Source: a virus
Taxonomy: Duplodnaviria > Caudoviricetes
Length of the DNA stretch: 64,000 bases
IMG/VR virus record: IMGVR_UViG_3300046786_000930
Span: 4,805-68,804 of that record
Direction: 5' to 3' (one strand)
In this document: piece by piece, positions 2,486 through 49,367 of the stretch
Position numbering within the stretch: the first letter of the stretch is position 1
Layout of the letters: every line of letters begins with the position of its first letter
Translations under genes and position numbers: made by a program
The notes under the pieces: model-generated
What the model saw: the letters and a program-made list of their open reading frames with translations, nothing else
The model's database searches: none
Told to the model about the DNA's origin: nothing

Positions 2486-2499
2486 AAGATGTGAATATT

Positions 2500-2643
2500 A
2501 TGATAGTTCAATCACTTAGTCACGACGGAATACATCAGATTGAATTAAGACATAACAAAAAATATGCGGTAGTAAGAGGGAGCGGTAATTGGTTCAAAGT
2601 TTTTATAAAGTGCTTAGTTAAAATATTATGGCAGAGACAATAA
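2500..2643 (+). CDS. Small hypothetical protein (47 aa, not in the ORF track)
   Basis: MIVQSLSHDGIHQIELRHNKK...KILWQRQ fills the 2485-2628 gap and overlaps the next start. Confidence 0.4.
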   Translation: MIVQSLSHDGIHQIELRHNKKYAVVRGSGNWFKVFIKCLVKILWQRQ

Positions 2644-5567
2644 ATAAAAAACCATGGGAACCTATCGAATTAGCTGATGCTGTTGGTATGGTGAGTAACC
2701 AAGTATCAGGTCCAAAGAACTCTGCTCAGTTACTAAAAAACCTTCACACCCACAGAAAACCCGGTGCATTAAGAGTGAGAAAAGGTTACACACTAAAGTA
2801 TGATTATCCTTCCGATAGTTCGATTAAGAACACATTATCAAGCGTAGCAATAACTATTGCAAGTCCAGGAGTAATAACAGAAACAAGTCATGGATTGAGA
2901 CAAGGGCAAGGGATCACCTTCAGCACAACCGGGGCGTTGCCGACTGGTTTAGTGGCCGGGACTACTTATTATGTGAATTACTTAACCGTGGATACGTTTG
3001 CGGTTAGTGCTACTTATAACGGAACGAGCATAAACACAAGTGGAACCCAAAGCGGAGTACACGCGGTTCATTACAGAGGATTTTTAACCTATGATTTCTT
3101 TTTCGACAGACAAGCATTATCAACCGGGCAAGAAGTAACATGCTTGCTTGAGAAGGGCACAGTACAACCAGTAGCGACAAGTGGAGTTACGGATACACAA
3201 AACATGCTGTGTATGTGGATAAGACCTTACTGGAACGGATCGGCCTGGACAGATGCTTGGCAATGGCTGAACAAAACAATTATCACAAGAGTAAAAGTAG
3301 AGAGTGATTCGACTTATCCTAATATGATAATTGCGTTTGATAGTTTTAGCTTAAGCGATGATGCCTTGGTGGGATGGACTATTTACAATAAAACAAAAGG
3401 ACAATATGCGAAAATAATTACTTCTAAAATTCAAGTAGGGCACACAAGAATTGTTCATACGGCTTACGATAGTTATTGGGAAGAAAACGATGTTTTGTTA
3501 ATAATGAAAAACTTCGTTGATCTTACAGCAATGGCAGAACTATACACAGCAACTTGGGATGAGATACAGTTCCATCATGTGAATAATGACTTAAGAATAG
3601 GATTTGGTGGTAAGGCGAATAGGCCGGGATTGATGGTAGGTTATAGAAAAAGTTATTTAATGCTGAATCAATTTGATTTTACGGCTTCACATGCTGATTT
3701 GACAAGTGCAGCATTACTAGCTTTTGCTACTAACGATGCGGTGATCCTAGATACCCATGTAGCAGATAAAAATTTATTCGGAGTTGATCTAACTGCAACT
3801 AGCGGAACCCTTACAGCAAACACATATTATTTTCGCTTAACCGGGTTAATAGATGGGTATCAGGAACAACTATTAGCTGAAAATGAAATAATTGTTGCCG
3901 GTGGGGATGATGATATTAAAATTTATCCTTTTGCCTATATCAACAAATTAAGTACAAGGATAACACAATTAAATTTATATAAAAGCACTGATCAGACCAC
4001 TTGGTATAAGGTCAAGACGAATCCTTTAAGAACCGATACGTTCCTAAATACTACATGGAAAATAGACGAACAAGGCAGAATAATTATTATTGAAGCTGCA
4101 GATCTAATAACAGACGATAATGCAGCGAAACCAACAAGCGATACTAATAGTATTGGTGGATGGTCAGCACAGGATACTTGGGGATGTAGTTTTGAGTCTG
4201 AAGATGATGATGTAGGGCAGGTGAACGGTGTAACAATGACAATCGCAAGTCCATGTGTGCTAACAAAAGCGAACCATGGATTAGCTGATGGGCAGAAAAT
4301 AAGATTGTATACAACCGGAGCTTTACCAACTGGTTTAGTTGCTGATACTGATTATTTCGTAAAATGGGTTGATGCAAGTACGTTCAAATTAGCTGGAACT
4401 TATGGAGGAGCGGATATAAACACTTCCGGATCTCAATCTGGATCTCATCATCTATATTGCGGATTACGAACTCCTCAGAATGGAAGTTATTTCTTATTAT
4501 GGAAGAATACTCAATATTATTCTATGATAATGAAATTAACCTCTCCAATAATTACTTATACAACTCAAAAAGTTAGTGTAAGTTTTTATGTAAAAACCAA
4601 TGTTAGCGGGATAGTGTTAAAAATAGGTTCAACCTCACCTTATCCTAATCCATTCGGAAGTGGAGAAGATGATGTAGAATATCAAGAAGTCACGTTATCA
4701 AATGATGGAAGTTGGCATCAGCATTCAGTAACGATGAATCTTTATGGAAAATTATTATTACAAGCGAGCGCAGATGCTTTAGGGAATACAATAACAAGAA
4801 TAGGAATAGATAATATTGTCATTCAATCGGCAGATTATTTGTTGGGTAATTTATCAAACGGAACCGAGATGAACTCTGAGTTAGGATACACTCCTACTTA
4901 CAACTTAGTCAAAGGATGGGATCAGGCGTTAGAGTATAACAAAAGAGTTTATTATTTGAATCCTTACGTTGAAAAGAGATACGAAAACTATATTTTGGTA
5001 AGCCACATCCATTCAAGCGGCGCTTACATGTATGATTTGGCATCGTTCAGTAATTTTCGCGAGTTAGAGAAATTCGACAGCAACAAAACTTTAGGTATGG
5101 CGTTATTGCCTACAAATGAATTATTGATACTAAAAGATAAATCAGTTGTAAGCATTGATCCAGACACCGGAGCGGGCAGAGAACCATTGTTCGGGATTTC
5201 ATGTGTGACCTTAAATAGCATAGCAAATCTTGGTGGAATAATACTTTGGTGCGGATTATTTGACATTTACATTATGAACGTAGGCAACGGTTATAACGTG
5301 AAGGGATTACTTAAGGACACCATCCTTGATAAATATCTTGATGCTTCAGTTATTCCAGACAAGACAAAGATACAAGCCGTGAGAGACAAACACAACTCTT
5401 ACAGAATTAGGATCTATGACGCTACAAACAAAACTGAGTTTTTATTAACAGAAAACGGCTGGATACAAGAAGTTAAGAATCATTTCCCCGAAATCCATAG
5501 GACAGACGGTAATGATCAGCTTACGTTTATGAATGATGGAAACATTTACACAATCGAAAACGAGTAA
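2628..5567 (+). CDS. Tail muzzle/stabilization protein (P22 gp10/T7 gp12-like), apparently lacking its C-terminal domain
   Basis: The N-terminal SAQLLKNL...PGALRVRKGY pattern, beta-rich propeller-like C-terminal half, size and position fit. It contains two copies of a ~75-aa inserted module. Confidence 0.6.
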   Translation: MAETINKKPWEPIELADAVGMVSNQVSGPKNSAQLLKNLHTHRKPGALRVRKGYTLKYDYPSDSSIKNTLSSVAITIASPGVITETSHGLRQGQGITFSTTGALPTGLVAGTTYYVNYLTVDTFAVSATYNGTSINTSGTQSGVHAVHYRGFLTYDFFFDRQALSTGQEVTCLLEKGTVQPVATSGVTDTQNMLCMWIRPYWNGSAWTDAWQWLNKTIITRVKVESDSTYPNMIIAFDSFSLSDDALVGWTIYNKTKGQYAKIITSKIQVGHTRIVHTAYDSYWEENDVLLIMKNFVDLTAMAELYTATWDEIQFHHVNNDLRIGFGGKANRPGLMVGYRKSYLMLNQFDFTASHADLTSAALLAFATNDAVILDTHVADKNLFGVDLTATSGTLTANTYYFRLTGLIDGYQEQLLAENEIIVAGGDDDIKIYPFAYINKLSTRITQLNLYKSTDQTTWYKVKTNPLRTDTFLNTTWKIDEQGRIIIIEAADLITDDNAAKPTSDTNSIGGWSAQDTWGCSFESEDDDVGQVNGVTMTIASPCVLTKANHGLADGQKIRLYTTGALPTGLVADTDYFVKWVDASTFKLAGTYGGADINTSGSQSGSHHLYCGLRTPQNGSYFLLWKNTQYYSMIMKLTSPIITYTTQKVSVSFYVKTNVSGIVLKIGSTSPYPNPFGSGEDDVEYQEVTLSNDGSWHQHSVTMNLYGKLLLQASADALGNTITRIGIDNIVIQSADYLLGNLSNGTEMNSELGYTPTYNLVKGWDQALEYNKRVYYLNPYVEKRYENYILVSHIHSSGAYMYDLASFSNFRELEKFDSNKTLGMALLPTNELLILKDKSVVSIDPDTGAGREPLFGISCVTLNSIANLGGIILWCGLFDIYIMNVGNGYNVKGLLKDTILDKYLDASVIPDKTKIQAVRDKHNSYRIRIYDATNKTEFLLTENGWIQEVKNHFPEIHRTDGNDQLTFMNDGNIYTIENE
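2841..4460 (+). repeat. Two diverged copies of a ~75-aa module inside the muzzle gene (about 2841-3075 and 4227-4460)
   Basis: TIASPG..HGL..TTGALPTGLVAGTTYYV..INTSGTQSG versus TIASPC..HGL..TTGALPTGLVADTDYFV..INTSGSQSG. Confidence 0.85.
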
Positions 5568-5573
5568 ACACTT

Positions 5574-7787
5574 ATGAAGAAATTATTTTTAATTATAGCG
5601 TTTATTTTTGTGGGGTGTATATCGGGACAGAATATTCGCATCGACCAAGTTAAGGAGTTGCCAGACACAATAGCGTATCTTAGGAACCTCCATGCAATGG
5701 GAGATACAAATACAGTACAAGCCTTTATAAGAGATTCTCTCGGAAGGTTTTGGGATTCAACAGAAGTAAAAGCCGCGATAGGCGACAGCACAACCGCAAC
5801 CGATGCAAGATTAAGCGATTCAGTTGGTGTACTCAATACGAGAATAGATTCTGTAATTAACAATTTAGGTGAGGGTGGTGTTGACACACTTACACAAAAT
5901 ATTACTATCCTTAATTATGGGCAGTTTTCTACACCGGAACAATATTTAATCTATCAAAGCGACACTACTGTTGCCATACAAAGATGTGGTGATTCGGTAG
6001 GTACGAGACAAATACTTTTAACAGGACAATATACAATAAGAGATAGCATCAAGTGGGACTTAGCTGGCGGTGAAATGGATATAATTTTTGCCAAAGATGC
6101 AAAGATTACCTCTGCCGATAATGTACCTTCAACCGATTACTATCATCCTATTGGAGAAATTATAATTATAAATGGTAAGCGAGTGGGGATTACTGGTGGG
6201 GAATTGTATGGTTATACTTCGGCAACAAATGTATTCCAGAGTGTTTTGTGTATCAGAGATATAGATATTGTTACTCTTAAAAACTTAACTGTCAGACGTG
6301 GGAAATATGCGGGAACTTTTATAGTAAATCCTCATAATCTTGATGTAGATAATTGTTTCATGGATTCAAGTCATTATGCAAATTTATTAATAGGGAATTC
6401 CAAGCAATCAAATATTTCAAAGGGAGAATATTCTTATGCGGGGTATGATGTAGTTGCTAATCCCGATACTGGATATGGAATAAGTTTTATCGGTAGATAC
6501 GTTTATCCGCCTGGAAGTTCAGGGAACTTTAACAATGAAAATATTACTGTGAATAGTGTAAAAGCAAATTACAACTCTCGTAAAGGAGTAGATGCACACG
6601 GAGGGCAGAACATTACATTTACAGAAAACAAAGTAAAAGGTTTTGGAAGTTGTGGAATTTATGCGGTGAATGAAGATGGTAATACCGGATATGAGAAACA
6701 TGTTAGGAACGTGATAATAAGTAACAACACAGTTACTCAAGACTCTTTATGGTTAGAAGGATTATTAGGCAACAGAACCTCTCTTTATCTAACGACAGGG
6801 AGAACGGTTTTGGATAGTCTTTATTGGTGGAATGCAATCCAAGTAGGAGATTACCAAAGTTCAACAACCACACAGATGTATCCTTCGGGAACATTTACAG
6901 TACAGGGGAATACTTTAGATTCAATGAATTCAAGAGGGGCAAGAGCACCCTTATCTGTATTTGTGGCTATAACAAAATTGGTTGGTTATCCAAGACCACA
7001 AATAGATGCAATTAATATTCTAAACAATACCATTCTATATCCTAATGTAACCACTGATGAATTTGATGGTGAACAAGATGCTGTTATTTATTTTACCAAC
7101 GGTACTGTTCCTCCAAGATTTGTTAATGTAAGCGGAAATAATATTTTTAGAGATACCTTACAAAGCACGGCAAATAATGGAATTAAGTTAGCGTTTACAA
7201 ATCCAGGTTCATGGAATCTTGTAGAGACAAATGATAGTTTGTTTAACCAGATCGTGAATGTAAACAACAATAATGTTTATGGCTATTTTAATTATCCTTT
7301 ATTCATAAGTTCAAACAACATTAAGCAAGTTACGTCCAACAACACTTATAATGGGAATCGACTTGCAGATATGGATGATGCTTATAACGGGGTTAAAAAA
7401 TTTACGTTCCATGCAGTTGCGGCGGGTGATTCAATTACGTTAGTTGATAGTGTGAAAATAACAGCTTCTTTAGATGGGATGACTGTTTATAATATTAAGA
7501 TTACTTCTTCAAATGATGTTGATAAGGGGATTAATGTTTATAATTACATAGCATACGCAAAAGACACAACCACAGTAGAAGGCAACCCAATGGCTACTGC
7601 TGCAACGATTATGAACGAATCTGGAATCGGTGGGTATACAGAAACAGACAGACCTACATTAACATGGAGAACAAGCGGTAATGTAGGCACATTAAAACTA
7701 TTTGATAGTAACAGCGATGGGTATTCAAAATATAATATTGAGATGATAATAACCTCAAGGAACGTACCTTATTGGAGGAGCGAATAA
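5574..7787 (+). CDS. Signal-peptide-bearing right-handed beta-helix (tailspike/pectin-lyase-like) protein
   Basis: MKKLFLIIAFIFVGCISG|Q signal peptide. Asn-rich NITVNSV/NVIISNNTV/NILNNTI beta-helix rungs. Confidence 0.7.
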   Translation: MKKLFLIIAFIFVGCISGQNIRIDQVKELPDTIAYLRNLHAMGDTNTVQAFIRDSLGRFWDSTEVKAAIGDSTTATDARLSDSVGVLNTRIDSVINNLGEGGVDTLTQNITILNYGQFSTPEQYLIYQSDTTVAIQRCGDSVGTRQILLTGQYTIRDSIKWDLAGGEMDIIFAKDAKITSADNVPSTDYYHPIGEIIIINGKRVGITGGELYGYTSATNVFQSVLCIRDIDIVTLKNLTVRRGKYAGTFIVNPHNLDVDNCFMDSSHYANLLIGNSKQSNISKGEYSYAGYDVVANPDTGYGISFIGRYVYPPGSSGNFNNENITVNSVKANYNSRKGVDAHGGQNITFTENKVKGFGSCGIYAVNEDGNTGYEKHVRNVIISNNTVTQDSLWLEGLLGNRTSLYLTTGRTVLDSLYWWNAIQVGDYQSSTTTQMYPSGTFTVQGNTLDSMNSRGARAPLSVFVAITKLVGYPRPQIDAINILNNTILYPNVTTDEFDGEQDAVIYFTNGTVPPRFVNVSGNNIFRDTLQSTANNGIKLAFTNPGSWNLVETNDSLFNQIVNVNNNNVYGYFNYPLFISSNNIKQVTSNNTYNGNRLADMDDAYNGVKKFTFHAVAAGDSITLVDSVKITASLDGMTVYNIKITSSNDVDKGINVYNYIAYAKDTTTVEGNPMATAATIMNESGIGGYTETDRPTLTWRTSGNVGTLKLFDSNSDGYSKYNIEMIITSRNVPYWRSE

Positions 7788-8242
7788 TGAAAAAAATAAT
7801 TTTATTTATAATGCTATTATTTACCTCCTATTCTTTTGCGCAAGATACAAAGTTCTTTGGTACGGTAGAGGCAGATACCTTAGTTGGGTTCAAAGCCGAT
7901 ACCCTAAGCTATTCTTGGGGAATAATGGACACCGTAACAACTGGTGATTTGCCAGGGTGGAAAGTTCCTACTGATATTACAATTATAGAAGTTAGTGGAT
8001 ACACAGATGCTAATACAGTAACTTTTAATATTGAAGAACGGACAGAAGCAACCCCAAATACTGCTGCTGCGACTGATGTCATGGATACCGATTTGGCAGC
8101 AGATGTAAATCAAGAGGAAGCAAGTGGGGTTGATCTTGATAACGTTGCAATAGCAAAAGATTCTTGGTTAGTTCCTACAATTAGTGCAACTGGTGATGTA
8201 GCAATATTTGGAATTACAATACGTTATGTTAAAGTATATTAG
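7787..8242 (+). CDS. Signal-peptide-bearing small beta-sandwich (fibre-associated-like) protein
   Basis: The ATG at 7787 overlaps the upstream stop. MKKIILFIMLLFTSYSFA|Q signal peptide. The C-terminal AIAKDSWLVPTISATGDVAIFGITIRY resembles fibre-associated beta-sandwich domains. Confidence 0.65.
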   Translation: MKKIILFIMLLFTSYSFAQDTKFFGTVEADTLVGFKADTLSYSWGIMDTVTTGDLPGWKVPTDITIIEVSGYTDANTVTFNIEERTEATPNTAAATDVMDTDLAADVNQEEASGVDLDNVAIAKDSWLVPTISATGDVAIFGITIRYVKVY

Positions 8243-11009
8243 TCTAATTTTCATATTGTGTTTTGAACTATTCCCGCAAGGAAATATGCTTGTTAATCGC
8301 AAGCATTATTGGGATAGTTTGGTACTAATAGTTCCTGATACTTCTACGAATATTTACGTAGATGGTAACAATGGGCTTGATGCAAATGATGGATTAACTG
8401 GGGCGACTTCGAAATTGACCTATCCGGCTGGTGAAGCGTTGGTAAATGCAGTAACAGATACAATGTTTTTAACTGGAACGTTTGATTATCCATTTCCCAA
8501 AACCAAGACATTCGTTATCGCCACTTATGGAGATTTTAATTATACGAATGGATTAAACGGATATACTTATGTACCAGGTGCAGAAGGTGGGGCGGTTGTA
8601 GATACGTTTTACGTTGGTTCTGGAACTGATGATAAAACAAGGGCTGGCACTACTGGATTGTTTGATTTGGAATATTTGAATATGGGTGCTCAGTATTCTA
8701 ATGTAAAGGTTGCGACAAGATTTGTGAACGTAGTTGAACGTTCTGGATATGATTCTGCATTGATTGAATACACTGCCTATGATTCTCATACTGCTGATGA
8801 TATTGTTTTAAGATTCTATGGTGAGGATTTGGGAAACCCTCCTACATTCGGAACAGGCTATGCGGACTTTGATGTAAGGTATGAAACACTAACAACTGCT
8901 TATAAAGACACTACATTTCAAACCGACTGGGTTAATGGGACTAATTATAAATTTAGATTAGGCGGTGTTATCGGAGAACTGTTTACAAACTACGCTTATA
9001 CTGGTTCACAAGCAATTACGATATTTAATGTAAATAATGGTTCAACCTCAAGTACTTTTAGAAGTGCAAGTGCTTATGATTTAAGCTCCGGTGCTGAGAA
9101 GGCAAAGCTGATAATTTATTCAGATGGTACTGCTTCTAATGCTTACTATTGGAAAGATCAAACAACTGAGGTTACTGCTGTTTATTTTGGATCTGAATTG
9201 GGAACCGAGAATACAGATAAAAGTTTGATTGATTCTACAAAAGAATGGTGTTGGAGTGGAGATACGCTTTATATTTACGGCGAAGTATTACCACCTTCGG
9301 GAACTGCCGATAAATATGTTTGTGATTTATGTGTAGATGTAGATGCAGTTGATGATTCAGCGACTACTATTGCAGAAGTGAACGCATGGACTTTAGTGGG
9401 TGGGGATACGGTTGCAATTAAAATAAATGAAGTTCGTGATGACGCTATTCTTGTTCCTCAGAACAACGTGGTATATACTTCTTATGGCGGAGATGGGAGA
9501 TACATTTTACAACACTCAGACCTAACAAACGAACAGCACGTAGTAAATGCTCAAAATATAAGCGGAGCAACTATTGAAAATGCGGAGATAATCGGTAAGA
9601 ATTGGGTTATTGTAAATGGGAGTTCTGGTTTGACTTTTGATAATATTTATTGCCATCATTATGAAAACACTAATTATCATTTCCCGCATGATGGACGCGG
9701 AATGTTCACCGCCATTGGTACACAAGCACTATACCTAACTATTCAAAACAGTATCTTTGAAAGTGGATTTCCCATTGCAGCTTCAGAATGCGGAGATCAA
9801 GATTCTGTTTGCACAAGCGATATGTTTTCTCTTTGGAATGCCGGAGGTGGCGGAAGTGGCTATATCTATTTCTACAATAATATTTTTAAGAATGCGCCCC
9901 ATAGTTTAATTGGCATTGGTCAGGGTGGAAGCGAGAAGGTATCTCATCACATTTTAATAAGACTGAATAGGTTCTACAATCAGTATCATCACGGAGTTTA
10001 TGATATAGATCAGGGAACAACTACGGCAAAAGATAGTTGCATAATTGTTGATTTTAATCTTTTTGAACGTAGTGGAAGTGGATTAAGACAAAGTGCAACA
10101 AATAATTTTGTCCAGTATAATAGAGAACTGGGGGCTTTTGGTGTAGCTGGTGGCAGTAATATTGTAAGGTACAATGTAATTAAAAGAACCTCATGCAGAA
10201 GAAATGAATGGAACAATGCTGGTGGAGTGCAGTTTGGCAGTGATATTTATAATCTAAGAATGTATAACAATGTTCTTGATAGTTCTTATGGTATGGCAAT
10301 GAGGTTTATTTATAGTGCGGGAAGCACTAAATTTGAGAACAACTATTTTTTCAACAATGCCTTCACAAGAAGTGGAGACCCTAATTGGGAAACTTATTAT
10401 CCAGGTATTGACGGTGATAGTGTTGCAATAATTTATTGGGATGATAATGCCGGAAGTCCATCAAATAACATTTTTAGTTATAGCTATTTTGGTACATCAA
10501 GTAACAATCTATTAAATCTCTTGGCGGGTGATTTAGAAACAACAAATAGCACCGCGTGGACTGGTGTTACGTTCCAGAATAATCTTAATGGCTATCGCAC
10601 CACTTCAGTATTCGATGCACCAGATGACAGCATTCCAAACTGGACTTACTGGACACCTCAAACAGTAAGAGGTAATTTGTATGATAGTGTTCTGGCTAAT
10701 TACAATGGCAAAGCACCTTTGATAGATGCGGGCAGACCACACACCTACATTAGCGGAACTGTAAATAACGATACCATCCTTGTAACTGATTCAAGAGTAT
10801 TTTTTGACGGCTGGAATTGGCAAGAACTTGAGGGAGATAGTCTTTTAATTGGCACTTATAGAGTTCAAGTAATAGGAATAAACTATACAACAAATTACAT
10901 AGCATTAAGTGGGATAGTTGATGTTGCAGATAACACTCCGGTGTATCTGATTAACCCCTACACACATGATGCTTATAAAGAAACTGAAATAGATATAGGT
11001 TTAGAATGA
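8226..11009 (+). CDS. Signal-peptide-bearing beta-helix (pectin-lyase-like) protein
   Basis: MLKYISLIFILCFELFP|Q signal peptide. It has a YVDGNNGLDANDG motif, repeated FYNNIF/VRYNVI/MYNNVL rungs and APLIDAG near the C-terminus. Confidence 0.7.
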   Translation: MLKYISLIFILCFELFPQGNMLVNRKHYWDSLVLIVPDTSTNIYVDGNNGLDANDGLTGATSKLTYPAGEALVNAVTDTMFLTGTFDYPFPKTKTFVIATYGDFNYTNGLNGYTYVPGAEGGAVVDTFYVGSGTDDKTRAGTTGLFDLEYLNMGAQYSNVKVATRFVNVVERSGYDSALIEYTAYDSHTADDIVLRFYGEDLGNPPTFGTGYADFDVRYETLTTAYKDTTFQTDWVNGTNYKFRLGGVIGELFTNYAYTGSQAITIFNVNNGSTSSTFRSASAYDLSSGAEKAKLIIYSDGTASNAYYWKDQTTEVTAVYFGSELGTENTDKSLIDSTKEWCWSGDTLYIYGEVLPPSGTADKYVCDLCVDVDAVDDSATTIAEVNAWTLVGGDTVAIKINEVRDDAILVPQNNVVYTSYGGDGRYILQHSDLTNEQHVVNAQNISGATIENAEIIGKNWVIVNGSSGLTFDNIYCHHYENTNYHFPHDGRGMFTAIGTQALYLTIQNSIFESGFPIAASECGDQDSVCTSDMFSLWNAGGGGSGYIYFYNNIFKNAPHSLIGIGQGGSEKVSHHILIRLNRFYNQYHHGVYDIDQGTTTAKDSCIIVDFNLFERSGSGLRQSATNNFVQYNRELGAFGVAGGSNIVRYNVIKRTSCRRNEWNNAGGVQFGSDIYNLRMYNNVLDSSYGMAMRFIYSAGSTKFENNYFFNNAFTRSGDPNWETYYPGIDGDSVAIIYWDDNAGSPSNNIFSYSYFGTSSNNLLNLLAGDLETTNSTAWTGVTFQNNLNGYRTTSVFDAPDDSIPNWTYWTPQTVRGNLYDSVLANYNGKAPLIDAGRPHTYISGTVNNDTILVTDSRVFFDGWNWQELEGDSLLIGTYRVQVIGINYTTNYIALSGIVDVADNTPVYLINPYTHDAYKETEIDIGLE

Positions 11010-14000
11010 AAAAATACTTATTTATAATTTTCGCATTGACAACCTTCGCAAGTTTTGGGCAGAGTAACTTATTACTATTCTTTGATGATGACAAAGAAGC
11101 TCCTTCAGTTCCAACCTCACCAAGTGCAGTAGGAACTCCCGAAGTAGTTACTGCGAGTTGGGTAGATCCAACTGCCTTAGATTTGAAATGGATTATAGTT
11201 TACCGTGATGTAACAACAAATCCAACAACTGCAATAGATACTGTTCTAAAGGGAGTTGGTTCTTATACTGATACTCCATTAGTTGCTGGAACAGAATACT
11301 TTTATCGTTTTAGAGCACAAGATTATTCTGGTAATTTATCCGCATACACTTCAACTGTTAGTGATACAGCTAAGGCAATACAGTACGCTGGTGATTATGA
11401 TGGGAGTACGGATTATTTATCATTAGCCACTCCGCCTTTACAAATGATGGGCAAATATAGCTTGCAAGAAACATTCTCAGATGGTGATTACACTACTGGT
11501 AATGCTTGGACTGTTTCTTCTGGTGCTTATGCAGTAACTGATACAGTAGCTATGTATAGCGGACTTACTTATGCTTTAAGATGTGCAACTGCGGGGATAA
11601 TTTCAATCCCTAATAATTGGGCTTATGGATATGTGGCTTTTGATTGGCGTAAAGGTGGTTCGACCAATATAAATTATGTCTATTTAAATAGTAAAAGTTC
11701 AAATACTTCAACTAACGGCTATGCTTTATATACTTCGGCAACTTCAAGGCAAACCCTAAGCATTGTTAATAGTGGGGTACATAATACGTTATTTTATTCT
11801 GGGGCAAGCTATGTAAACAATTTTGTTTCTTACCGTGACAGCATAGTAAGAAACACTAATGGCTCATTTTCCGTTTACATTAAGGGTGGAACATTTGGAG
11901 ATACTTATACTTTAGTTTCAACTACCGGAGGCAGTGGTACTAATCCAGTAACAGACAACACTTACACACAATCAAATTACTTTGTACTTGATTTAGATGC
12001 TGGCGATATGATAGCAAACATTGTCTGTGAATATGGTATGGGCAGTATGGATTTGAATGGACATGAACTTACAAAGTACCCAACTTATAATGCAAGTTTT
12101 GAAGTTGGAGATGAAGTAATAACCAATGGAAGTTTTGGGAGTAATATAACTGACTGGACTGCCGGTGGTTCAACAGCAAAGTGGTATAATACTGATTGGA
12201 ATGCTGTCTCAAGAACAAACGCTATTTTAGACTCGGCAACACTTACAGATCAATCCTATCTCATTGCAACTTATGGGACAACATCTGGTGTTAGATATAA
12301 ATTAACTTATACATATTATATCCCAGCAACTAACACAACTTGTGTTGCAGTAAAAACAAGATATATTGGCGGGAGTAATCCTTATGGAACAATTCAAACA
12401 GTAGTTGGTACATGGACAACCGCATCTGAATATGTTACTCCATCCACAAATTATACTCAGATTCGATTTTATCAATTTGATGCTGGTGGAGCGTATAATA
12501 CTTCTGCTGGCGATAAAATCTACATTGACGATGTATCAATCAAACCAGTACCATATTGGGAAGGTAGTGGCACAATGTCTGTTGATACCACAACAGAGCA
12601 AAAGCAAAGTGGTAGTGGAGGAGCGAAGTTTGTTCAGAGTTTGGGGAGTGATTTAGCTTTATCTCATGGTGATTTTACTGATGCAGCAGATACATTATGG
12701 TGGACAGATGGAAGTGATGCTTGGATTATGACTGGTGGAGTTGCAAGTGCTTCGGGTACATCTTCTCATTTAAGAGGAGCAATTGGCGGGTTGGCAAATA
12801 ATAAATATATGATTGAATTTGATGCAACGATTACATCCGGTAGTTTGTTATGGCAAATAGGTGGTTCGCATTCTGAGAGTGCTCATTCAGTAACGTCTGG
12901 ACATAATATTGGGTATTGTAATACAAGTGGAAGTGGAGATATTTATTTTATCCCTTCATCTTTTGTCGGAACACTTGATAATATAGTTATTTATAAATCT
13001 TCTGGCGACACCACAACGAACTATGCAAAACTTGACCACAGTTATTATAATACTTTAGTTGCTGGTGAAAAAACAACTCTTGAGTATTGGGCACAAGAGG
13101 ATGGTAGTAATGGAAGTAATTTAATACCAGATTCAGCTTCTACTTTTAGCACTTATCCAGGTGGAGGAATAACTTATTGGACTGCGGTAAGAGGAACGCG
13201 TGCATGGAGTACCGCAGATTCGTCATTATTATGGACTTACGATGGTTCAAGTAGTAGTCCAAGAGGTATAAGTAAATCTGGAAATTTAACGGTTGGAAAA
13301 CTTTACAAACTAACCTTTAGGGCAAAAGCAGATTCTAATAGAAATTATACGCTTAGTTTTCTTGGGGATATAACTTCTGGTGGCTATGGCGCAGTAACTC
13401 CTAATTTAACTACTGCTTGGCAAAATTATCAAAAATATTTTACTGCAACAGCAACAAGTTTTTATCTTGGTAGTGCGAGCACATCTGGGATGACTTTAGA
13501 TGATAGTGTTATGATAGATAACATAGTATTGCAAGAAATCACCAAAACCACTCACACAGTATCAGTAGGCGGTAAAGTATTAGGCACGACAGATACTCTT
13601 TCATGTATTCCAGGTGTATTTGAGAAGGTAGTATTTAACTTCCTCAATGATGCAACAACTGTTAATGGTGACATAAAGATTTACAAGAACCAAGCTTCTA
13701 TTGGCTACATGGACGGAAATTCAATCACGCAAGCAAAAGACTTGATGGTGAATGTGTGGGTAAAAACGAGTAATGTTGGTTCAAATTTACCGATTATCTA
13801 TTATCGGGGAATAAGCGGTGCCTTTTGGCAAGTGCTAAGAAGTTCGAGCAATTATTATCGAGCAGACTTAAATGATGGTGTAACTAATGTTACACTTAAC
13901 ACAGCGTCAACTTATACAAGTGATATTTACGTGTTTGTAAGTTTTCTGATCAGTCGTACAACTAATGGCTTGGTGTATATCAATGGAGCTCTTTCAAATA

Positions 14001-14311
14001 CTGGAAATTTTACTACGATTGGTAAAGTAACAAACAATTATCCCCTAAACATTGGAGGCTATTCAACCATATATTTTACTGGTCAAATCGGTGGAATACA
14101 GATAACAACCTTTGCCGACATATCAACAGTAAACTATACCCCAGCACAGATTTACAGTTTGTCCAAATATAACGGACAATACTTTCCAAGAACTTACACT
14201 GGAGGGACTGAGGTGCTTTACATGAAGATGGATGATGCAACTGATGAGTCAGCTTATGGTCATGTGTTTACAAATAATGGTACAGTAACTTTTGGAACGG
14301 TAACTTATTAA
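11006..14311 (+). CDS. Signal-peptide-bearing FN3 + carbohydrate-binding-like + LamG/concanavalin-like protein
   Basis: MKKYLFIIFALTTFASFG|Q signal peptide. FN3 (APSVPT..LVAGTEYFYRFRAQDYSGNLSA), ITNGSFGSNITDW-type CBM-like repeats, and a LamG-like C-terminus (GLVYINGAL...PLNIGG...FTGQIG). Confidence 0.75.
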   Translation: MKKYLFIIFALTTFASFGQSNLLLFFDDDKEAPSVPTSPSAVGTPEVVTASWVDPTALDLKWIIVYRDVTTNPTTAIDTVLKGVGSYTDTPLVAGTEYFYRFRAQDYSGNLSAYTSTVSDTAKAIQYAGDYDGSTDYLSLATPPLQMMGKYSLQETFSDGDYTTGNAWTVSSGAYAVTDTVAMYSGLTYALRCATAGIISIPNNWAYGYVAFDWRKGGSTNINYVYLNSKSSNTSTNGYALYTSATSRQTLSIVNSGVHNTLFYSGASYVNNFVSYRDSIVRNTNGSFSVYIKGGTFGDTYTLVSTTGGSGTNPVTDNTYTQSNYFVLDLDAGDMIANIVCEYGMGSMDLNGHELTKYPTYNASFEVGDEVITNGSFGSNITDWTAGGSTAKWYNTDWNAVSRTNAILDSATLTDQSYLIATYGTTSGVRYKLTYTYYIPATNTTCVAVKTRYIGGSNPYGTIQTVVGTWTTASEYVTPSTNYTQIRFYQFDAGGAYNTSAGDKIYIDDVSIKPVPYWEGSGTMSVDTTTEQKQSGSGGAKFVQSLGSDLALSHGDFTDAADTLWWTDGSDAWIMTGGVASASGTSSHLRGAIGGLANNKYMIEFDATITSGSLLWQIGGSHSESAHSVTSGHNIGYCNTSGSGDIYFIPSSFVGTLDNIVIYKSSGDTTTNYAKLDHSYYNTLVAGEKTTLEYWAQEDGSNGSNLIPDSASTFSTYPGGGITYWTAVRGTRAWSTADSSLLWTYDGSSSSPRGISKSGNLTVGKLYKLTFRAKADSNRNYTLSFLGDITSGGYGAVTPNLTTAWQNYQKYFTATATSFYLGSASTSGMTLDDSVMIDNIVLQEITKTTHTVSVGGKVLGTTDTLSCIPGVFEKVVFNFLNDATTVNGDIKIYKNQASIGYMDGNSITQAKDLMVNVWVKTSNVGSNLPIIYYRGISGAFWQVLRSSSNYYRADLNDGVTNVTLNTASTYTSDIYVFVSFLISRTTNGLVYINGALSNTGNFTTIGKVTNNYPLNIGGYSTIYFTGQIGGIQITTFADISTVNYTPAQIYSLSKYNGQYFPRTYTGGTEVLYMKMDDATDESAYGHVFTNNGTVTFGTVTY

Positions 14312-14353
14312 CAGTTCACAACGGAACACGGTATAGCTGTAAGGAAAGAAGAA

Positions 14354-14689
14354 ATGAATAATTTAACAGTATGGCACGGAATCTCGGTATTGTCCGTAAT
14401 TTTGAGTACAGCAATAATGATTGTTGGGTATTTTATTAAGAAATGGATGAAAAGAGTGGAGGTACAGTTGGAGAAGTTAGAAGAGAATTATAAGACAATT
14501 GAAACAGAACAAAACCAGCAGAAACTAAATTACATTGATAGATTCCAAAGTGTTGAACTAAAGATTGAACGTACTGAGAAAAACATTATAAATGTAATCA
14601 ACGATTTGAAAGACCATATTACTGAAACATTTGTATCAAAGAGTTTTTGCCAATTTATTCAAGAACATAAGCCAAAAGGAAATTTTTAG
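14354..14689 (+). CDS. Membrane protein with N-terminal TM and coiled coil; holin/antiholin-like
   Basis: Hydrophobic ISVLSVILSTAIMIVGYFI followed by a coiled coil, upstream of the endolysin. Confidence 0.45.
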   Translation: MNNLTVWHGISVLSVILSTAIMIVGYFIKKWMKRVEVQLEKLEENYKTIETEQNQQKLNYIDRFQSVELKIERTEKNIINVINDLKDHITETFVSKSFCQFIQEHKPKGNF

Positions 14690-14779
14690 TGACGGTAAGA
14701 ATACCATTCTTAAAAATGACACAAAACAAGCATAGCATGCCCCCAAACATTCTTGCCGTCATTGTTTTTAGAGGACAAA

Positions 14780-15175
14780 ATGAATTATGAAATCAAACAT
14801 ACAGATGACGTAGAGGAGGCAATTGTGCTAATCTTTTCGGGACTATTATTTTTCTTAAAGAATCACACCAAGAAAACCATCATAGCGATATTATTGATTT
14901 GTGGTTCAATAGTTTATGTTGCTTTTGATTATTTTACCTCAGACAAAATTAAGATGGAACGACTGAAACCATTAACAGAAGAAATAAGTTTGTTCCCTAA
15001 TTTATACGCACAAGGTAAAAATCCAATTATTTTTGATGGCAAATATTACGGAGAACAAGATACAGACTACATAATTTATAAACTTAGGTACTCTGACGAA
15101 CTGATAATTTACAACAAACGCCTAAAGTATGGGTATAAAATTGAGATACCGGCTTTGGAGAAATTTAAAAAATAA
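14780..15175 (+). CDS. Membrane-anchored hypothetical protein in the lysis region
   Basis: AGAGGA Shine-Dalgarno before the ATG at 14780. Hydrophobic segments AIVLIFSGLLFFL and IIAILLICGSIVYVAF. Confidence 0.5.
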   Translation: MNYEIKHTDDVEEAIVLIFSGLLFFLKNHTKKTIIAILLICGSIVYVAFDYFTSDKIKMERLKPLTEEISLFPNLYAQGKNPIIFDGKYYGEQDTDYIIYKLRYSDELIIYNKRLKYGYKIEIPALEKFKK

Positions 15176-15188
15176 GAGGAATAGTAAA

Positions 15189-15647
15189 ATGAAAAAACTA
15201 ATTTTTGCGTTGATCTTAATTCCGGTAATAGTTCTCAAAGCCCAATATACTTATCCGGACTTTGAAATAGCGGATTCGTTAAAAGGCGGAACAGATACCA
15301 CACAGATTATAAACACGAATTACGGAGGAGGTAATCCTTTCGGGATTGGAGAATGGTGGATCGCGGCCAAAGATACTGGAAGCACCTATACGGATAGTGT
15401 CGCGGTATTCGCGGGATGGATTAGACGTAACCCAAGGAGCTATGCTGTGACAGACACCTTTTGGACAAGGATAATGTTCAAGGACAGCGCCTGGAACGTT
15501 ATTAATGTACTAAACGCACCGGCTACAGAGAGTTCCTGGACGCCGTTAATGAACATGCCGTTTCTGCTAAAGCTAACAATGATAAACGCACAGTTTGTAA
15601 ATAGCAGGCGTTGGGATTTTGCTATTCAGGGTAAAAAACTGAAATAA
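15189..15647 (+). CDS. Signal-peptide-bearing small beta-rich protein
   Basis: GAGGA before the ATG at 15189. MKKLIFALILIPVIVLKA|Q signal peptide. Confidence 0.65.
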   Translation: MKKLIFALILIPVIVLKAQYTYPDFEIADSLKGGTDTTQIINTNYGGGNPFGIGEWWIAAKDTGSTYTDSVAVFAGWIRRNPRSYAVTDTFWTRIMFKDSAWNVINVLNAPATESSWTPLMNMPFLLKLTMINAQFVNSRRWDFAIQGKKLK

Positions 15648-15676: not shown

Positions 15677-16024
15677 ATGTTCAAGTTATTATTCGCATTT
15701 ATAGTTTTTATAATTGCACAAGTATTACCAATTGATTCGTTAGTTACATGGCTTACACCAGTAATAGTTTATGGAGTTACTTGGGCAGTAGCAAAACTAA
15801 AACCGTTAATTCCCGGTTGGCTTATTTTAACGATTGTGGCTGGATTGGGTGGTTTGTATACTTTGGTTACTCAGTTATTTGGTAATCCTGAGCTGAAGTG
15901 GTGGCAGCAACTTTTATATGCTTTATTAGCAGTTGTTATTAGCCAGTTCAAAATTCAGTTTGGCGGAGAAAAACGAGCCGAGGATACGAAAGCAATTACT
16001 GATGATAAAAAATTAAACGGCTGA
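15677..16024 (+). CDS. Putative holin
   Basis: AAGGAG Shine-Dalgarno, several TM segments, a charged C-terminal tail, and position immediately upstream of the endolysin. Confidence 0.65.
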   Translation: MFKLLFAFIVFIIAQVLPIDSLVTWLTPVIVYGVTWAVAKLKPLIPGWLILTIVAGLGGLYTLVTQLFGNPELKWWQQLLYALLAVVISQFKIQFGGEKRAEDTKAITDDKKLNG

Positions 16025-16030
16025 AACAAT

Positions 16031-16543
16031 ATGAATCTTGTATGGACACACAAAGTAAGTTCAGATTTCGTAAAGAAATTATTAAGGATTTGTATAGTCC
16101 TTAGAGTTGATCCGGATTCTTTGATGTCATGTATGGCATTCGAAACAGGGGAAACATTCTCCCCTTCGATTAAGAATAAAAAATCCGGTGCAACGGGCCT
16201 GATACAATTCATGCCATCAACTGCCGGTGCTTTGGGTACATCCGTTGAGGACTTAGAAATTATGACCGCAGAAGAACAGTTAGATTTTGTGGAGAAATAT
16301 TTTCTGCCGTGGAAGGGAAGGTTACAAACGTTGGAAGATGTTTACATGGCGATATTATTTCCAAAAGCGATTGGTAAACCGAATAATTATATTTTGTTTG
16401 CAAAAAATGATGTTAAGTATCCGAAACGGTATATTCAGAATTCTGGTTTAGATTATAATAAAGACGGATACATAACGAAGGAAGAAGCTGCAATGAAAGT
16501 GAAAGAAAAACTTATCAAAGGACAGAAGTTATTAAATGGCTGA
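16031..16543 (+). CDS. Endolysin, lysozyme-like/lytic transglycosylase fold
   Basis: MAFETGETF (catalytic Glu), GATGLIQFMPSTA, QLDFVEKYF and VYMAILFP motifs of SLT-like phage lysins. No signal peptide. Confidence 0.85.
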   Translation: MNLVWTHKVSSDFVKKLLRICIVLRVDPDSLMSCMAFETGETFSPSIKNKKSGATGLIQFMPSTAGALGTSVEDLEIMTAEEQLDFVEKYFLPWKGRLQTLEDVYMAILFPKAIGKPNNYILFAKNDVKYPKRYIQNSGLDYNKDGYITKEEAAMKVKEKLIKGQKLLNG

Positions 16544-16904: not shown

Positions 16905-17155
16905 TAATAAGGCACAATAAATTTGCAAGCATACCGGGACTAGATCAGGAGATTGATTTAATCCTAAAAGCGATAGATGAACAAATCGGAAGAGTGGTCA
17001 CAGAACTACCTAACGTAAAGAGCGTTGGTGAGTTTGCTAAATTTTATGTAAAGCAAACAGATGATACCTTTATTGCATTTACGAAAATAAATGGTGAATG
17101 GTATCAACCCTATGTAGATGAGAACTCAAAAGTATTTTATTGGAAGAAGGCATGA
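16901..17155 (+). CDS. Small tail-module protein
   Basis: Overlapping start/stop with both neighbours. Genes of this size often follow muzzle genes. Confidence 0.45.
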   Translation: MIIRHNKFASIPGLDQEIDLILKAIDEQIGRVVTELPNVKSVGEFAKFYVKQTDDTFIAFTKINGEWYQPYVDENSKVFYWKKA

Positions 17156-18003
17156 GTTTAAGAACTAAAATAAGAGAATACGTTGATGGTTTGCTTACGG
17201 TATCTGATGCTGCGGTAGCACTAAAAGAAGATAAGGCGAATAAGAAAACTTCCTTAACTGATAACAGTGATACTTATTACCCAAGTCAGAAGGCGGTTAA
17301 AACTGCTGTTGATGCAAAATCAGATAGTGGGCACAATCATTCTGGCGTGTACGAACCAGTTTTAGGATATACACCAGAAAATGTAGCGAATAAAGAAACG
17401 TCTGCTTTAGATACTTCAGCTACAAAATATCCTTGTAATAATGTTGTTAAGACAGCAAATGACCTAAAAGCCAACGATGCAGACGTAGTGCATGATACTG
17501 GGGACGAAACTATTGCGGGAGAAAAAACATTTACTGGAGATTTATTATTCTCTGGGAATGGTTCTGGATTAGCTTATGGTTCTTTTTATGGAAATGAAAT
17601 AGCATGGACACAGGCAACGGCAGTTCAAAACACAGCATATCTTGTAAGTGATGCGGATATAGTAGATGGGTTATTAAACCTAATAACACATGATGGTAGT
17701 GGTAAATTAACTGTAACAAAGGCTGGAGTATATTCATTCACTTTTAGCGGAGTGTTTGAATCTTCAGTGCAGAATAAACACGTTAATGTAGGTGTCGCGA
17801 TAGACGGAACTGCCTCTAATATAGGGATGGTTCACATGGAATCTAAATTTGCCAACGAAGAAGAAATGGTTGTTGGTTGTGGATTATTAGATTTAGCAAT
17901 AAATCAAACAGTAGAAATATTTATCAAATGTGTAGAGACAGGCACGCCAAACATATCTGTTGACCACATAAGTTTGGTTTTAATAGGAATTGGCGGAACT
18001 TAA
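17152..18003 (+). CDS. Short tail fibre-like protein (no signal peptide)
   Basis: Two NKxTS..xYP..xVKTA repeats, the VVHDTGDETIAGEKTF fibre motif and a C-terminal beta-sandwich. Confidence 0.7.
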   Translation: MSLRTKIREYVDGLLTVSDAAVALKEDKANKKTSLTDNSDTYYPSQKAVKTAVDAKSDSGHNHSGVYEPVLGYTPENVANKETSALDTSATKYPCNNVVKTANDLKANDADVVHDTGDETIAGEKTFTGDLLFSGNGSGLAYGSFYGNEIAWTQATAVQNTAYLVSDADIVDGLLNLITHDGSGKLTVTKAGVYSFTFSGVFESSVQNKHVNVGVAIDGTASNIGMVHMESKFANEEEMVVGCGLLDLAINQTVEIFIKCVETGTPNISVDHISLVLIGIGGT

Positions 18004-48212: not shown

Positions 48213-48442
48213 AAACAGCAACAAAATTTTGGCAAGAGAAATTCAATGAATTACCACAAAATGATGCTGAAAAATTGGCGGTGGCAATGATGGCAGAATA
48301 TGCCGCCGAACACGACCAAGGGATAATCCAGATGATTGATGAGGTAAAGGAAATGTTGCATAGCAGATTAGATATTACGGTATTAGAAGTTCAACACATA
48401 CTCACCGAACTCAAGCAAAAGATATTGGAGGGAAAGAAATGA
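48209..48442 (+). CDS. Small hypothetical protein
   Basis: GTGA overlap; coupled ORF. Confidence 0.5.
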   Translation: MKTATKFWQEKFNELPQNDAEKLAVAMMAEYAAEHDQGIIQMIDEVKEMLHSRLDITVLEVQHILTELKQKILEGKK

Positions 48443-48903
48443 AAACAATATTCTGGATACTATTTTGCAGCACTTTATTGGTTGCGCAAACAGACAAACT
48501 ATGTGAACAAAGAGGACACGTTAGACCAGATGTTACAAGCGTAACCGACATGTATTTCCCGCCGAGATATGTGGACTTAGCAGATAGAACTCTTATGATT
48601 ACTTGGGATCAGAACATAGTTTCATATACTTGTTTGCGTTGCGGTGAAGAAGTCCGAGAGCCAGTTCAAGAGAAACCAGACACGACAATAATTTGGAAGG
48701 GGATAGAAGAATATCGGGATTGTGAGCGTATGTTGAATGTGGCAGAAGCAGAAATCTCCCGATTAAAGTTTGAGATTGAAATTAAGGACTGGCAAATTGA
48801 GGAATTACGAAAGCAACTGGAAGAAAATTTAGAGGCGTTCTTAAAAGTACAAATGCTCTTTGATGCGTATGTGAAACTAACAGACAAAGAAGGTGAAAAA
48901 TGA
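48439..48903 (+). CDS. Signal-peptide-bearing protein with Cys/His motifs and a coiled-coil C-terminus
   Basis: MKTIFWILFCSTLLVA|Q signal peptide; CEQRGH and CLRCG motifs. Confidence 0.55.
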   Translation: MKTIFWILFCSTLLVAQTDKLCEQRGHVRPDVTSVTDMYFPPRYVDLADRTLMITWDQNIVSYTCLRCGEEVREPVQEKPDTTIIWKGIEEYRDCERMLNVAEAEISRLKFEIEIKDWQIEELRKQLEENLEAFLKVQMLFDAYVKLTDKEGEK

Positions 48904-49367
48904 ATATAAAATTTATTATCGCTGGTATAGTATCAATTATCTTCATGGGTTGTTGCGGAACGAGATACGTCCAGAATGAGAGAATTGAGCAAATCAAACC
49001 AGACAAGATAGAAGCAGTGTTCCCCTCAAATCAAATTGTGGGCAAGATAGACACAGTTACTTTGGCTACTGTTTATGAAGCAAGCACGGTAACGCCCAAA
49101 GGTGACTCGGTTAAGGTAAAAATCAAGATGAAGCCAAAACCAATTCTTGCGGATACTATTTGGCATGATATCGATTCTCTCTATGTGGACATAACCCCTC
49201 ATTGGATTGGTGATCTTGATACTAATTTTACACCAGTTAAACCCGACACAGTTATAGTAAAACAAGTTCCGGTGATTGGTTATATAGCTTTTGGGATTGT
49301 CACTTTGGCTTTAATCGTAATAATAATAGTCGTCTGGAAGTTTGGGAAAATTAAGATTGGCACATAG
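48900..49367 (+). CDS. Lipoprotein with a C-terminal TM; unimolecular spanin-like
   Basis: Lipobox FMG|C, a beta-rich middle and a C-terminal TM (IGYIAFGIVTLALIVIIIVVW) followed by basic residues. Confidence 0.6.
   Translation: MNIKFIIAGIVSIIFMGCCGTRYVQNERIEQIKPDKIEAVFPSNQIVGKIDTVTLATVYEASTVTPKGDSVKVKIKMKPKPILADTIWHDIDSLYVDITPHWIGDLDTNFTPVKPDTVIVKQVPVIGYIAFGIVTLALIVIIIVVWKFGKIKIGT

Follow-up and report, generated by a model that had tools for sequence, protein, structure and literature searches.

We analysed a 64,000-nucleotide stretch (hereafter the window) of a tailed-phage genome, bases 4805-68804 of the 68,804-bp IMG/VR virus record IMGVR_UViG_3300046786_000930, in which five genes (A to E) directly upstream of the lysis genes or among them encode spike- and fibre-like proteins with N-terminal leaders. 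These leader-bearing proteins are most probably exported, matured in the periplasm and released at lysis. Together with two further small proteins, F and G, they have the sequence characters of genuine Sec/signal peptidase I (SPase I) substrates of a Bacteroidota host. A to D appear, from homologues and structural models, to form a late-gene cassette of two beta-helix depolymerase-like enzymes, an FN3 and LamG/CBM lectin-like protein and a small beta-sandwich protein. The seven proteins are listed below, the arrow marking the predicted cut.

5574..7787, plus strand: A, predicted exported beta-helix protein of 737 amino acids (aa), cut ISG↓Q; called from AlphaFold2 (AF2), Foldseek and homologues
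7787..8242, plus strand: B, predicted exported small beta-sandwich protein of 151 aa with a CBM-like fold, cut SFA↓Q
8226..11009, plus strand: C, predicted exported beta-helix protein of 927 aa, cut LFP↓Q; called from homologues
11006..14311, plus strand: D, predicted exported multi-domain all-beta protein of 1101 aa, FN3-like and then several LamG/CBM-like sandwiches, cut SFG↓Q
15189..15647, plus strand: E, predicted exported small beta-sandwich protein of 152 aa, within the lysis block, cut LKA↓Q
Genome 1484-2056, upstream of the window: F, protein of 190 aa with a textbook leader, cut LALA↓Q
48439..48903, plus strand: G, predicted exported protein of 154 aa, outside the block and amid early or middle genes, cut LVA↓Q

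The open reading frames (ORFs) of A to E had been singled out in an earlier reading of the sequence (the original prediction), which proposed that tail-appendage-like proteins of this phage carry Sec signal peptides (SP) with Gln at +1. All five were present at the coordinates above, each with a basic n-region, an uncharged hydrophobic core and Gln directly after the predicted cut, which was canonical in four of the five (A, B, D and E). A heuristic applied to all 79 called genes asked for a basic n-region, then 9-18 uncharged hydrophobic residues as the core, and small residues at -3/-1. It picked A, B, D and E, and also F and G, which had not been listed before. Gln occupied +1 in all seven leader-bearing proteins, and as it makes up 3.8% of the proteome the chance probability of this is ~1e-10. 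A strict leader-plus-Gln pattern was matched by six of the 327 plus-strand ATG starts (five of them these proteins, the sixth the first transmembrane helix of the holin) and by none of the 46 minus-strand starts. By the same heuristic, and in line with the original claim for the ring, muzzle, short fibre and ejection proteins, no leader was found on the capsid, portal or terminase proteins or on the 333-, 224-, 979-, 287-, 206-, 398- and 4453-aa proteins. Gln at +1 also matches, as had been supposed, the Q-rule for Bacteroidota SPase I substrates (PMC5837995). Since this rule is specific to Bacteroidetes and does not extend to the whole FCB (Fibrobacteres-Chlorobi-Bacteroidetes) group (PMC5837995), the host was placed in Bacteroidota.

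Judged by itself C, with Pro at -1, has a weak leader. A leader is retained at this position in its orthologues, however, with the cut ELFP↓Q in L006 (a contig belonging to the same lineage), VYP↓Q for P0009 and the canonical IYS↓Q in the siphovirus-like L003. The leader of C was accepted because of this retention, which includes a canonical site. The x-x-P↓Q form was seen in at least eight family members (C of the window, P0003, P0008, P0009, P0056, P0062, P0072 and P0078). Hydrophobic-x-Pro↓Q may be a variant that these hosts tolerate; alternatively, the proteins may be cut at another site.

Other routes and artefacts were considered. A can also be read as having a possible lipobox (FVG↓C), which is not conserved, its 74%-identical orthologue P0002 having no Cys there; in B, C, D and E this position is not Cys. 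With no conserved Cys, lipoproteins were ruled out for A to E. No C-terminal sorting domain (CTD) of the type IX secretion system (T9SS), either Por_Secre_tail/TIGR04183 or type B, was detected in A to G (Pfam E<=0.01, NCBIfam E<=0.1), and T9SS cargo was ruled out on this ground. Because they have neither a T9SS CTD nor a conserved lipobox, these SPase I substrates should stay periplasmic until lysis. Mis-called starts were ruled out as well, given that orthologues conserve the leaders and that an SP-less homologue, P0051, is preceded by stop codons.

A second signal was found in the mature proteins. The general O-glycosylation sequon of Bacteroidota is D-(S/T)-(A/I/L/V/M/T) (PMC8550257, PMC8729774), and in P. 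gingivalis most periplasm-exposed proteins are O-glycosylated (PMC8729774). The seven leader-bearing proteins held 56 sequons in 3412 aa, against 34 in the 18,588 aa of all other ORFs (1.64 vs 0.18 per 100 aa; odds ratio 9.1, P ~9e-24). Composition-preserving shuffles of the exported set (2000 trials) gave 17.3 +/- 3.8 sequons with a maximum of 32. The other ORFs were slightly depleted (34 observed vs 45.5 +/- 7 in shuffles). A had 18 sequons, ten of them within its first 160 residues and mostly in an N-terminal segment that AF2 leaves disordered. C had 14, E had four (0.5 expected) and F had five (1.2 expected). Among homologues, too, leader-bearing proteins were richer in sequons than SP-less ones (P ~4e-4 and ~6e-4, values that are only indicative as the sequences are related). 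The sequon excess is independent support for export.

The bodies of the proteins resemble parts of phage tailspikes and fibres. A to E themselves had no match in Pfam, PHROGs or NCBIfam, and a phmmer search of PDB sequences yielded no useful match, so the domains were called from homologues and from the model of A. The AF2 model of A (predicted local distance difference test score, pLDDT, 64 overall) showed a right-handed beta-helix at residues 117-600, mostly above 80, followed by a weaker C-terminal beta-sandwich. Residues 19-115 were disordered (pLDDT below 30) and contained seven sequons. The top Foldseek matches of A were mainly phage tailspike depolymerases (AM24, P1, Fri1 gp49, Dettilon gp208, HK620 and Sf6), and the list also held non-phage beta-helix proteins (RbmB lyase, GH110A and PfbA). 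Against BFVD, Foldseek returned tailspike and pectate-lyase superfamily proteins. Homologues of A had leaders and recorded Pfam Beta_helix/NosD domains, and Beta_helix (PF13229) was recorded for P0009 and for the L003 orthologue of C. The FN3 domain of D had only a weak hit. The AF2 model of D was poor (pLDDT 51) and showed only that the domains are all-beta. Twelve close relatives of D included four with Laminin_G_3 and three with CBM_4_9, and over residues 150-345 D showed 44% identity with the tip, at the C-terminus, of a tail fibre from a crAss-like phage (L011). In the ESM Atlas both B and E fell in viral clusters, and structural neighbours of B carried CBM_4_9 or CBM_6 at a TM-score of ~0.5. 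Of the folds first proposed, therefore, the beta-helix of A was borne out by AF2 and Foldseek, and the beta-helix of C and the LamG/CBM domains of D by way of homologues; the FN3 domain of D was left with its weak hit. A to D are translationally coupled, with overlapping stop and start codons at A/B and C/D and the start of C inside the end of B. A to E together occupy 13.4% of the genome.

The family of A was small, with 72 representatives at E<=1e-3 among 1.84 billion proteins, and SP plus Gln was seen in 23 of 73 representatives. All of the contexts examined were phage tail or lysis regions. No relatives turned up when 185,579 species, each represented by one genome, were scanned with the A and D families. 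In IMG/VR, scans with the A family and with a transmembrane protein from the lysis block yielded the L003-type phage alone. The original prediction would have been undone if the closest relatives were recently captured host secreted genes. They turned out to be phage proteins.

Two related cassettes were particularly informative. L006, a 14.5-kb contig with a homologue of the giant protein of the present phage, carries the order E-like gene, A, B, C, transmembrane protein, D, lysis genes. Its orthologues of A, B, C and D each had a leader (identity 74% for A, 81% for B and 63% for C), and the cassette is headed by a 28%-identical, leader-bearing homologue of E. L003, L004 and L005 represent a siphovirus-like, temperate phage that encodes an integrase and a tape-measure protein. 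The tail end of L003 reads hub, A, a 132-aa leader-bearing gene, C, a 286-aa protein and transmembrane proteins, and leaders were present on the A and C orthologues and on three more tail-end proteins. The 132-aa gene stands in the position of B, to which it had no BLASTP similarity. The A-C core was thus common to three phages, two of which also have D. Every orthologue of A to D in L006 and L003, like the other tail-end proteins named here, kept a leader followed by Gln, while the leader sequences themselves were unrelated; for C, a leader was kept at 63% (L006), 47% (L003) and 38% (P0009) identity. Leaders also occurred on tail-end genes of L009, L010, L014 and L015. Close relatives of D nearly all had leaders, mostly followed by Gln, and lay just ahead of the lysis genes in two more types of podovirus, L009 and L010, of which L010 has an SU10-type adaptor. 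Such retention while sequences diverge suggests that the leaders are under selection.

One pair of homologues differed in the leader itself. P0050, from siphovirus L014, has a leader, and P0051, from siphovirus L015, has none, with stop codons immediately upstream of its start; the two proteins are 46% identical end to end. Both occupy the same slot after the tail-tip genes, and in both phages the next two genes are leader-bearing. We take the leader to be a modular add-on to a colinear spike-like protein, because P0050 and P0051 differ by it. A further protein of L014 (14026-16545) was an 839-aa GDSL-lipase/esterase whose leader, too, is followed by Gln. Once cut, it would start much like A and like gp092 of Cellulophaga phage phi10:1, all beginning Q-N-I-basic, and these residues may represent a shared N-terminal element on different enzyme bodies.

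The leader-bearing genes lay immediately upstream of lysis genes in every phage examined. The lysis block of the present phage, apart from E, consists of the following.

14354..14689, plus strand: 111-aa protein with one N-terminal transmembrane helix and a coiled-coil-like body; i-spanin resemblance only
14780..15175, plus strand: 131-aa single-transmembrane protein, conserved in phages with the same cassette
15677..16024, plus strand: 115-aa holin-like protein with multiple transmembrane helices, 64% identical to its L006 homologue
16031..16543, plus strand: 170-aa SLT-type lytic transglycosylase (endolysin) with no leader; PF01464, phrog_4928 and phrog_196

The position of the exported block relative to the tail genes varied: here it follows the 979-aa protein, in L006 the giant protein and in L003 the siphovirus tail hub. 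The single-transmembrane protein at 14780-15175 was 74-78% identical to its counterparts at L003:17059-17454 and L006:11656-12048, against 46-74% for the neighbouring spike-like genes. Because it is far more conserved than A or C, the exported block and the lysis genes appear to travel together. From these comparisons the cassette appears to move horizontally between unrelated phages.

The same trait was found in cultured phages of Cellulophaga, namely the Pachyviridae podoviruses phi18:3 and phi46:3 and the Assiduviridae siphovirus phi10:1. As in the present phage, they have runs of three to five large leader-plus-Gln proteins, pectate-lyase-type enzymes among them, encoded where the structural genes end and with the lysis genes following directly, and their core virion proteins have no leader. 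In phi10:1 (KC821618), gp091-094 carry a leader and Gln and are noted in GenBank as "structural protein" on the strength of experimental tandem mass spectrometry (MS/MS) proteomics; the pectate lyase gp095 has a leader but no such mark. In phi18:3 (KC821620), gp085-087 carry a leader and Gln, have MS/MS structural notes and are followed directly by the lysis genes. Leaders are present on each of gp079-083 of phi46:3, and a muzzle-like protein of 1612 aa is the only other large fibre-like protein among the annotated genes at 30-73 kb of its record. Over the residues shown, phi10:1 gp093 and phi46:3 gp080 had identical N-termini, with ~93% DNA identity in parts of the block, even though one phage is a siphovirus and the other a podovirus. 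This looks like an exchange between morphotypes, typical of host-recognition modules. The gp093/gp080 gene block was present in 24 GenBank records, RefSeq duplicates included.

We propose the following course of events. The coupled cassette would be transcribed late, and the unfolded precursors would cross the inner membrane through SecYEG. SPase I would cut before Gln, a host glutaminyl cyclase (QC) would cap the new N-terminus as pyroglutamate, and the host's general O-glycosylation system would decorate the D-(S/T)-(A/I/L/V/M/T) sites, especially those in the disordered N-terminal stalk of A. The folded proteins would then wait in the periplasm until the adjacent holin and transglycosylase fire. 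Once released, they would meet the cytoplasmically built virions and the outside world, and would bind or cut host surface glycans. Cleavage, cyclisation, glycosylation and all steps after lysis we infer from sequence signals. Export itself, the first part of the original prediction, is strongly supported by the canonical and conserved leaders, the Q-rule Gln, the ninefold sequon excess and the phage-only relatives.

As to the fate of the proteins, two outcomes had been predicted. Joining the virions at lysis is plausible by analogy with the Cellulophaga phages; for display on the infected cell no route was identified. We give docking to the virion as outer appendages slightly less than an even chance. 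The fuller picture, a two-compartment assembly in some tailed phages of Bacteroidota, is offered tentatively and as somewhat less probable than its opposite. In such phages the capsid, tail core and ejection proteins would be assembled in the cytoplasm, and the spikes, fibres and small partners would be Sec-exported, capped, O-glycosylated and docked at lysis. Docking is favoured by the MS/MS notes of the Cellulophaga analogues, by the location of the genes in the usual receptor-binding slot, by the P0050/P0051 pair and by the kinship of D with a fibre tip. It is also favoured by the record of phi46:3, where the stretch at 30-73 kb has no other fibre genes besides the muzzle-like protein.

Several observations weigh against this interpretation. 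The N-terminal 100 aa of A are disordered and sequon-dense, and are not conserved even in the 74%-identical orthologue of L006. The body of C begins ~25 residues after the cut and the FN3 body of D right after it, in both cases with no recognised anchor domain. In A and C, where an N-terminal particle-binding domain would be expected of a docked spike, no anchor was recognised in sequence or model. The Cellulophaga proteins had no BLASTP similarity to A-E at E<=1e-3, and their sequons were not enriched. The argument for a place in the virion is one of analogy, because the proteins compared are neither homologous nor alike in sequons. Virion presence in Cellulophaga phages is documented by the GenBank MS/MS notes, whereas the present phage is known from its sequence alone, and MS/MS of purified particles can pick up co-purifying proteins. 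Export itself, and not docking, is what the Pro at -1 of C speaks against, as it is unusual for SPase I. The fibres of crAss001 (gp21-26) have no leaders, which also rules out that the trait is universal to Bacteroidota phages. We know of no mechanism that adds periplasmic proteins to finished tails. Finally, the same phage has two SP-less fibre candidates.

2628..5567, plus strand: 979-aa SP-less tail protein with two tail-fibre-like repeat domains (phrog_9370 and others), directly upstream of the cassette
17140..18003, plus strand: 287-aa SP-less fibre of the receptor-binding type, with a BppL_N domain, located after the lysis block

BppL_N is the N-terminal domain of the lactococcal phage receptor-binding protein, and its match in the 287-aa protein had an E-value of 1.8e-10. 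Because of this domain and the lack of a leader, the 287-aa protein is a conventional cytoplasmic receptor-binding candidate in the same phage.

Much of this evidence would also suit proteins that are exported but stay free. In that case periplasm-matured depolymerases, esterase-like enzymes and lectins would be released with the burst, and would strip or bind capsule, exopolysaccharide (EPS) and debris. They would aid the escape and spread of progeny, like the soluble tailspike depolymerases that make halos, and export would serve only to stabilise them through pyroglutamate, O-glycans and disulfides. QC and the Q-rule are indeed known to stabilise extracytoplasmic proteins (PMC10653852). We regard free release as a real possibility, if one with less than half the probability on its side. 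It accords with the missing anchors of C and D, with a stalk in A that close relatives do not conserve, with the phage's own SP-less fibre candidates and with the constant adjacency of the cassette to the lysis genes while its place among the tail genes shifts. The phi10:1 pectate lyase gp095, leader-bearing yet not among the MS/MS virion proteins, fits as well. Accessory enzymes would, however, be a large investment at 13% of the genome, and leader-bearing analogues are recorded from purified Cellulophaga virions. Among the annotated genes of phi46:3 at 30-73 kb, none but the leader-bearing ones and that for the muzzle-like protein is fibre-like, and P0050 is orthologous over its full length to an SP-less protein that holds the canonical position of a spike.

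It is unlikely that the proteins act on the envelope of the infected cell, either by removing or masking receptor glycans (superinfection exclusion, or prevention of re-adsorption) or by helping to breach, at lysis, the outer layers of a Bacteroidota envelope, which lacks recognisable spanins. The tight linkage to holin, endolysin and the highly conserved transmembrane protein in every phage examined would suit such a role, as would the position of E inside the lysis block and the temperate nature of one carrier (the integrase of L003). Matrishin et al. likewise proposed a role in modifying the outer membrane of the host for the Q-rule proteins of P. gingivalis phages (PMC10367356). The genes nevertheless belong to a translationally coupled operon of late structural genes, and exclusion would call for earlier expression. 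At 700-1100 aa and with homology to tailspikes and fibre tips, the proteins are too large for exclusion or for disruption of the outer membrane, and with neither a T9SS CTD nor a conserved lipobox they have no route to the surface.

We consider it very improbable that there is no export at all, the hydrophobic N-termini staying uncleaved or unused late in infection and the proteins assembling onto tails in the cytoplasm. Cytoplasmic assembly of tailed-phage virions is established knowledge, and the tailspike and fibre homology and the usual receptor-binding-protein slot agree with it. Still, Gln at +1 in seven of seven proteins and the retention of leaders in divergent homologues imply selection on processing, and the ninefold sequon excess makes sense only outside the cytoplasm. 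SP-less P0051 shows moreover that the leader is dispensable for folding, so it must serve targeting. Capture of host secreted glycoside-degrading genes (morons) with no phage-specific role is hardly credible: host-type leaders, Gln and sequons would be expected of a host gene, and beta-helix, LamG and CBM folds are common in Bacteroidota secretomes, but the scans of 185,579 species genomes found no relative of A or D, the contexts examined for the A family were all phage tail or lysis regions, D resembles a crAss-like fibre tip and the A-C core recurs in three phages.

The proteins differ from known systems in instructive ways. The tailspikes of HK620 and Sf6, of the Acinetobacter phages AM24, Fri1 and P1, and gp208 of Dettilon share with A the right-handed parallel beta-helix and C-terminal beta-sandwich, with Foldseek E-values down to ~1e-8 and TM-scores of only 0.2-0.5. 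These classical tailspikes have no leader, fold and trimerise in the cytoplasm and possess an N-terminal particle-binding domain, whereas A has a leader and a disordered, sequon-dense stalk. The LamG fibres of crAss-like L011, which lie between CrAss_Ring_2 and CrAss_Ring_1, have distal LamG-type domains, and a LamG domain is all that D shares with such fibres. They begin with a conserved SP-less N-terminal domain and hold few sequons; D has a leader and an FN3-like domain instead. The order portal, fibres, lysis genes in crAss001 resembles the order here.

Some late proteins of phages are known to depend on Sec, among them endolysins with signal peptides or signal-anchor-release (SAR) sequences and spanin subunits, and the receptor-binding protein pIII of filamentous phages is Sec-exported. 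They are precedents for late phage proteins that act or assemble beyond the inner membrane. The lysis proteins are small and act on the producing cell, and the virus carrying pIII assembles at the membrane; both are unlike A-E. A parallel in the literature was that of Matrishin et al. 2023, who described five P. gingivalis phage proteins of unknown function that obey the Q-rule and proposed phage use of the host's general secretion system (PMC10367356). Those proteins, like A-E, are phage-encoded predicted SPase I substrates exposing Gln in a Bacteroidota host. Unlike A-E, they belong to temperate phages and are not described as tailspike- or fibre-like, as a cassette or as sequon-rich. In the literature we found no report of a Sec-exported fibre or spike assembling onto a tailed phage, and no paper discussing leaders on Cellulophaga or other fibre-like phage proteins beyond passing mentions. 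Phage tailspikes and fibres on the one hand, and phage-encoded Q-rule secreted proteins on the other, are known kinds, and their combination is barely mentioned in the accessible literature.

Tailed-phage assembly is described in textbooks as wholly cytoplasmic, and receptor-binding proteins are assumed to be without host modification. Here, 13% of a complete phage genome encodes spike- and fibre-like proteins with the export, capping and glycosylation signatures of the host phylum. The leader trait recurs in several unrelated phage lineages, including the cultured Cellulophaga phages, where leader-bearing proteins have been reported in virions. Docking at lysis, if true, would be a way of assembling virions that has not been described and would add a new class of virion proteins, glycosylated ones, and a two-compartment assembly would yield glycosylated and protease-hardened receptor-binding proteins. 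If the proteins are instead free, Bacteroidota phages would routinely ship a periplasm-matured enzyme kit with each burst. The trait bears on the prediction of receptor-binding proteins and depolymerases of gut, marine and soil Bacteroidota phages, since leader-bearing ORFs are often discarded as "non-structural". It also bears on production in other hosts, as proteins made in the E. coli cytoplasm would lack the cap and the glycans, and on the interpretation of host range. A direct experimental test is possible with existing Cellulophaga phage-host pairs.

The virus record itself has a 127-bp direct terminal repeat and is 100% complete by CheckV, with all genes on the plus strand. Its gene set includes a P22-like portal, a terminase and a Phage_capsid_3-like capsid protein, as well as a cluster of glycan-tailoring genes at 57.8-64 kb. 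None of A, D and the 333-aa protein had a tblastn match in 50,697 GenBank phage records, where the portal found only distant matches (21-26% identity); there is no close cultured relative among the records searched. A related-locus search with the 979-aa protein also gave no match. No Pfam CrAss_Ring, Crass_capsid or other crAss family was matched in this phage, including its proteins at window 810-5567. With its P22-like portal and Phage_capsid_3-like capsid, the phage is not demonstrably crAss-like, and the labels "ring" and "muzzle", which the original prediction had given to some of its proteins, found no backing in Pfam or PHROGs.

A giant protein of 4453 aa (window 19854-33215) is preceded by the 206-aa and 398-aa proteins. 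It contained four sequons, with ~10 expected. In PHROGs, residues 992-1081 matched a family of RNA-ligase-like proteins and residues 3215-3309 one of DNA-repair-like proteins, and its C-terminal end was 40% identical to the end of a partial giant protein on L006.

F and G lie apart from the cassette. F immediately precedes the genes for scaffold and capsid. In the siphovirus L003, too, a small gene with a leader (cut ARA↓Q, from an internal start) lies among the head and neck genes. The stop of G is overlapped by a lipoprotein-like ORF.

48900..49367, plus strand: lipoprotein-like ORF of 155 aa, cut FMG↓C, with two further hydrophobic segments near the C-terminus

G and this ORF form a possible early or middle envelope-targeted pair.

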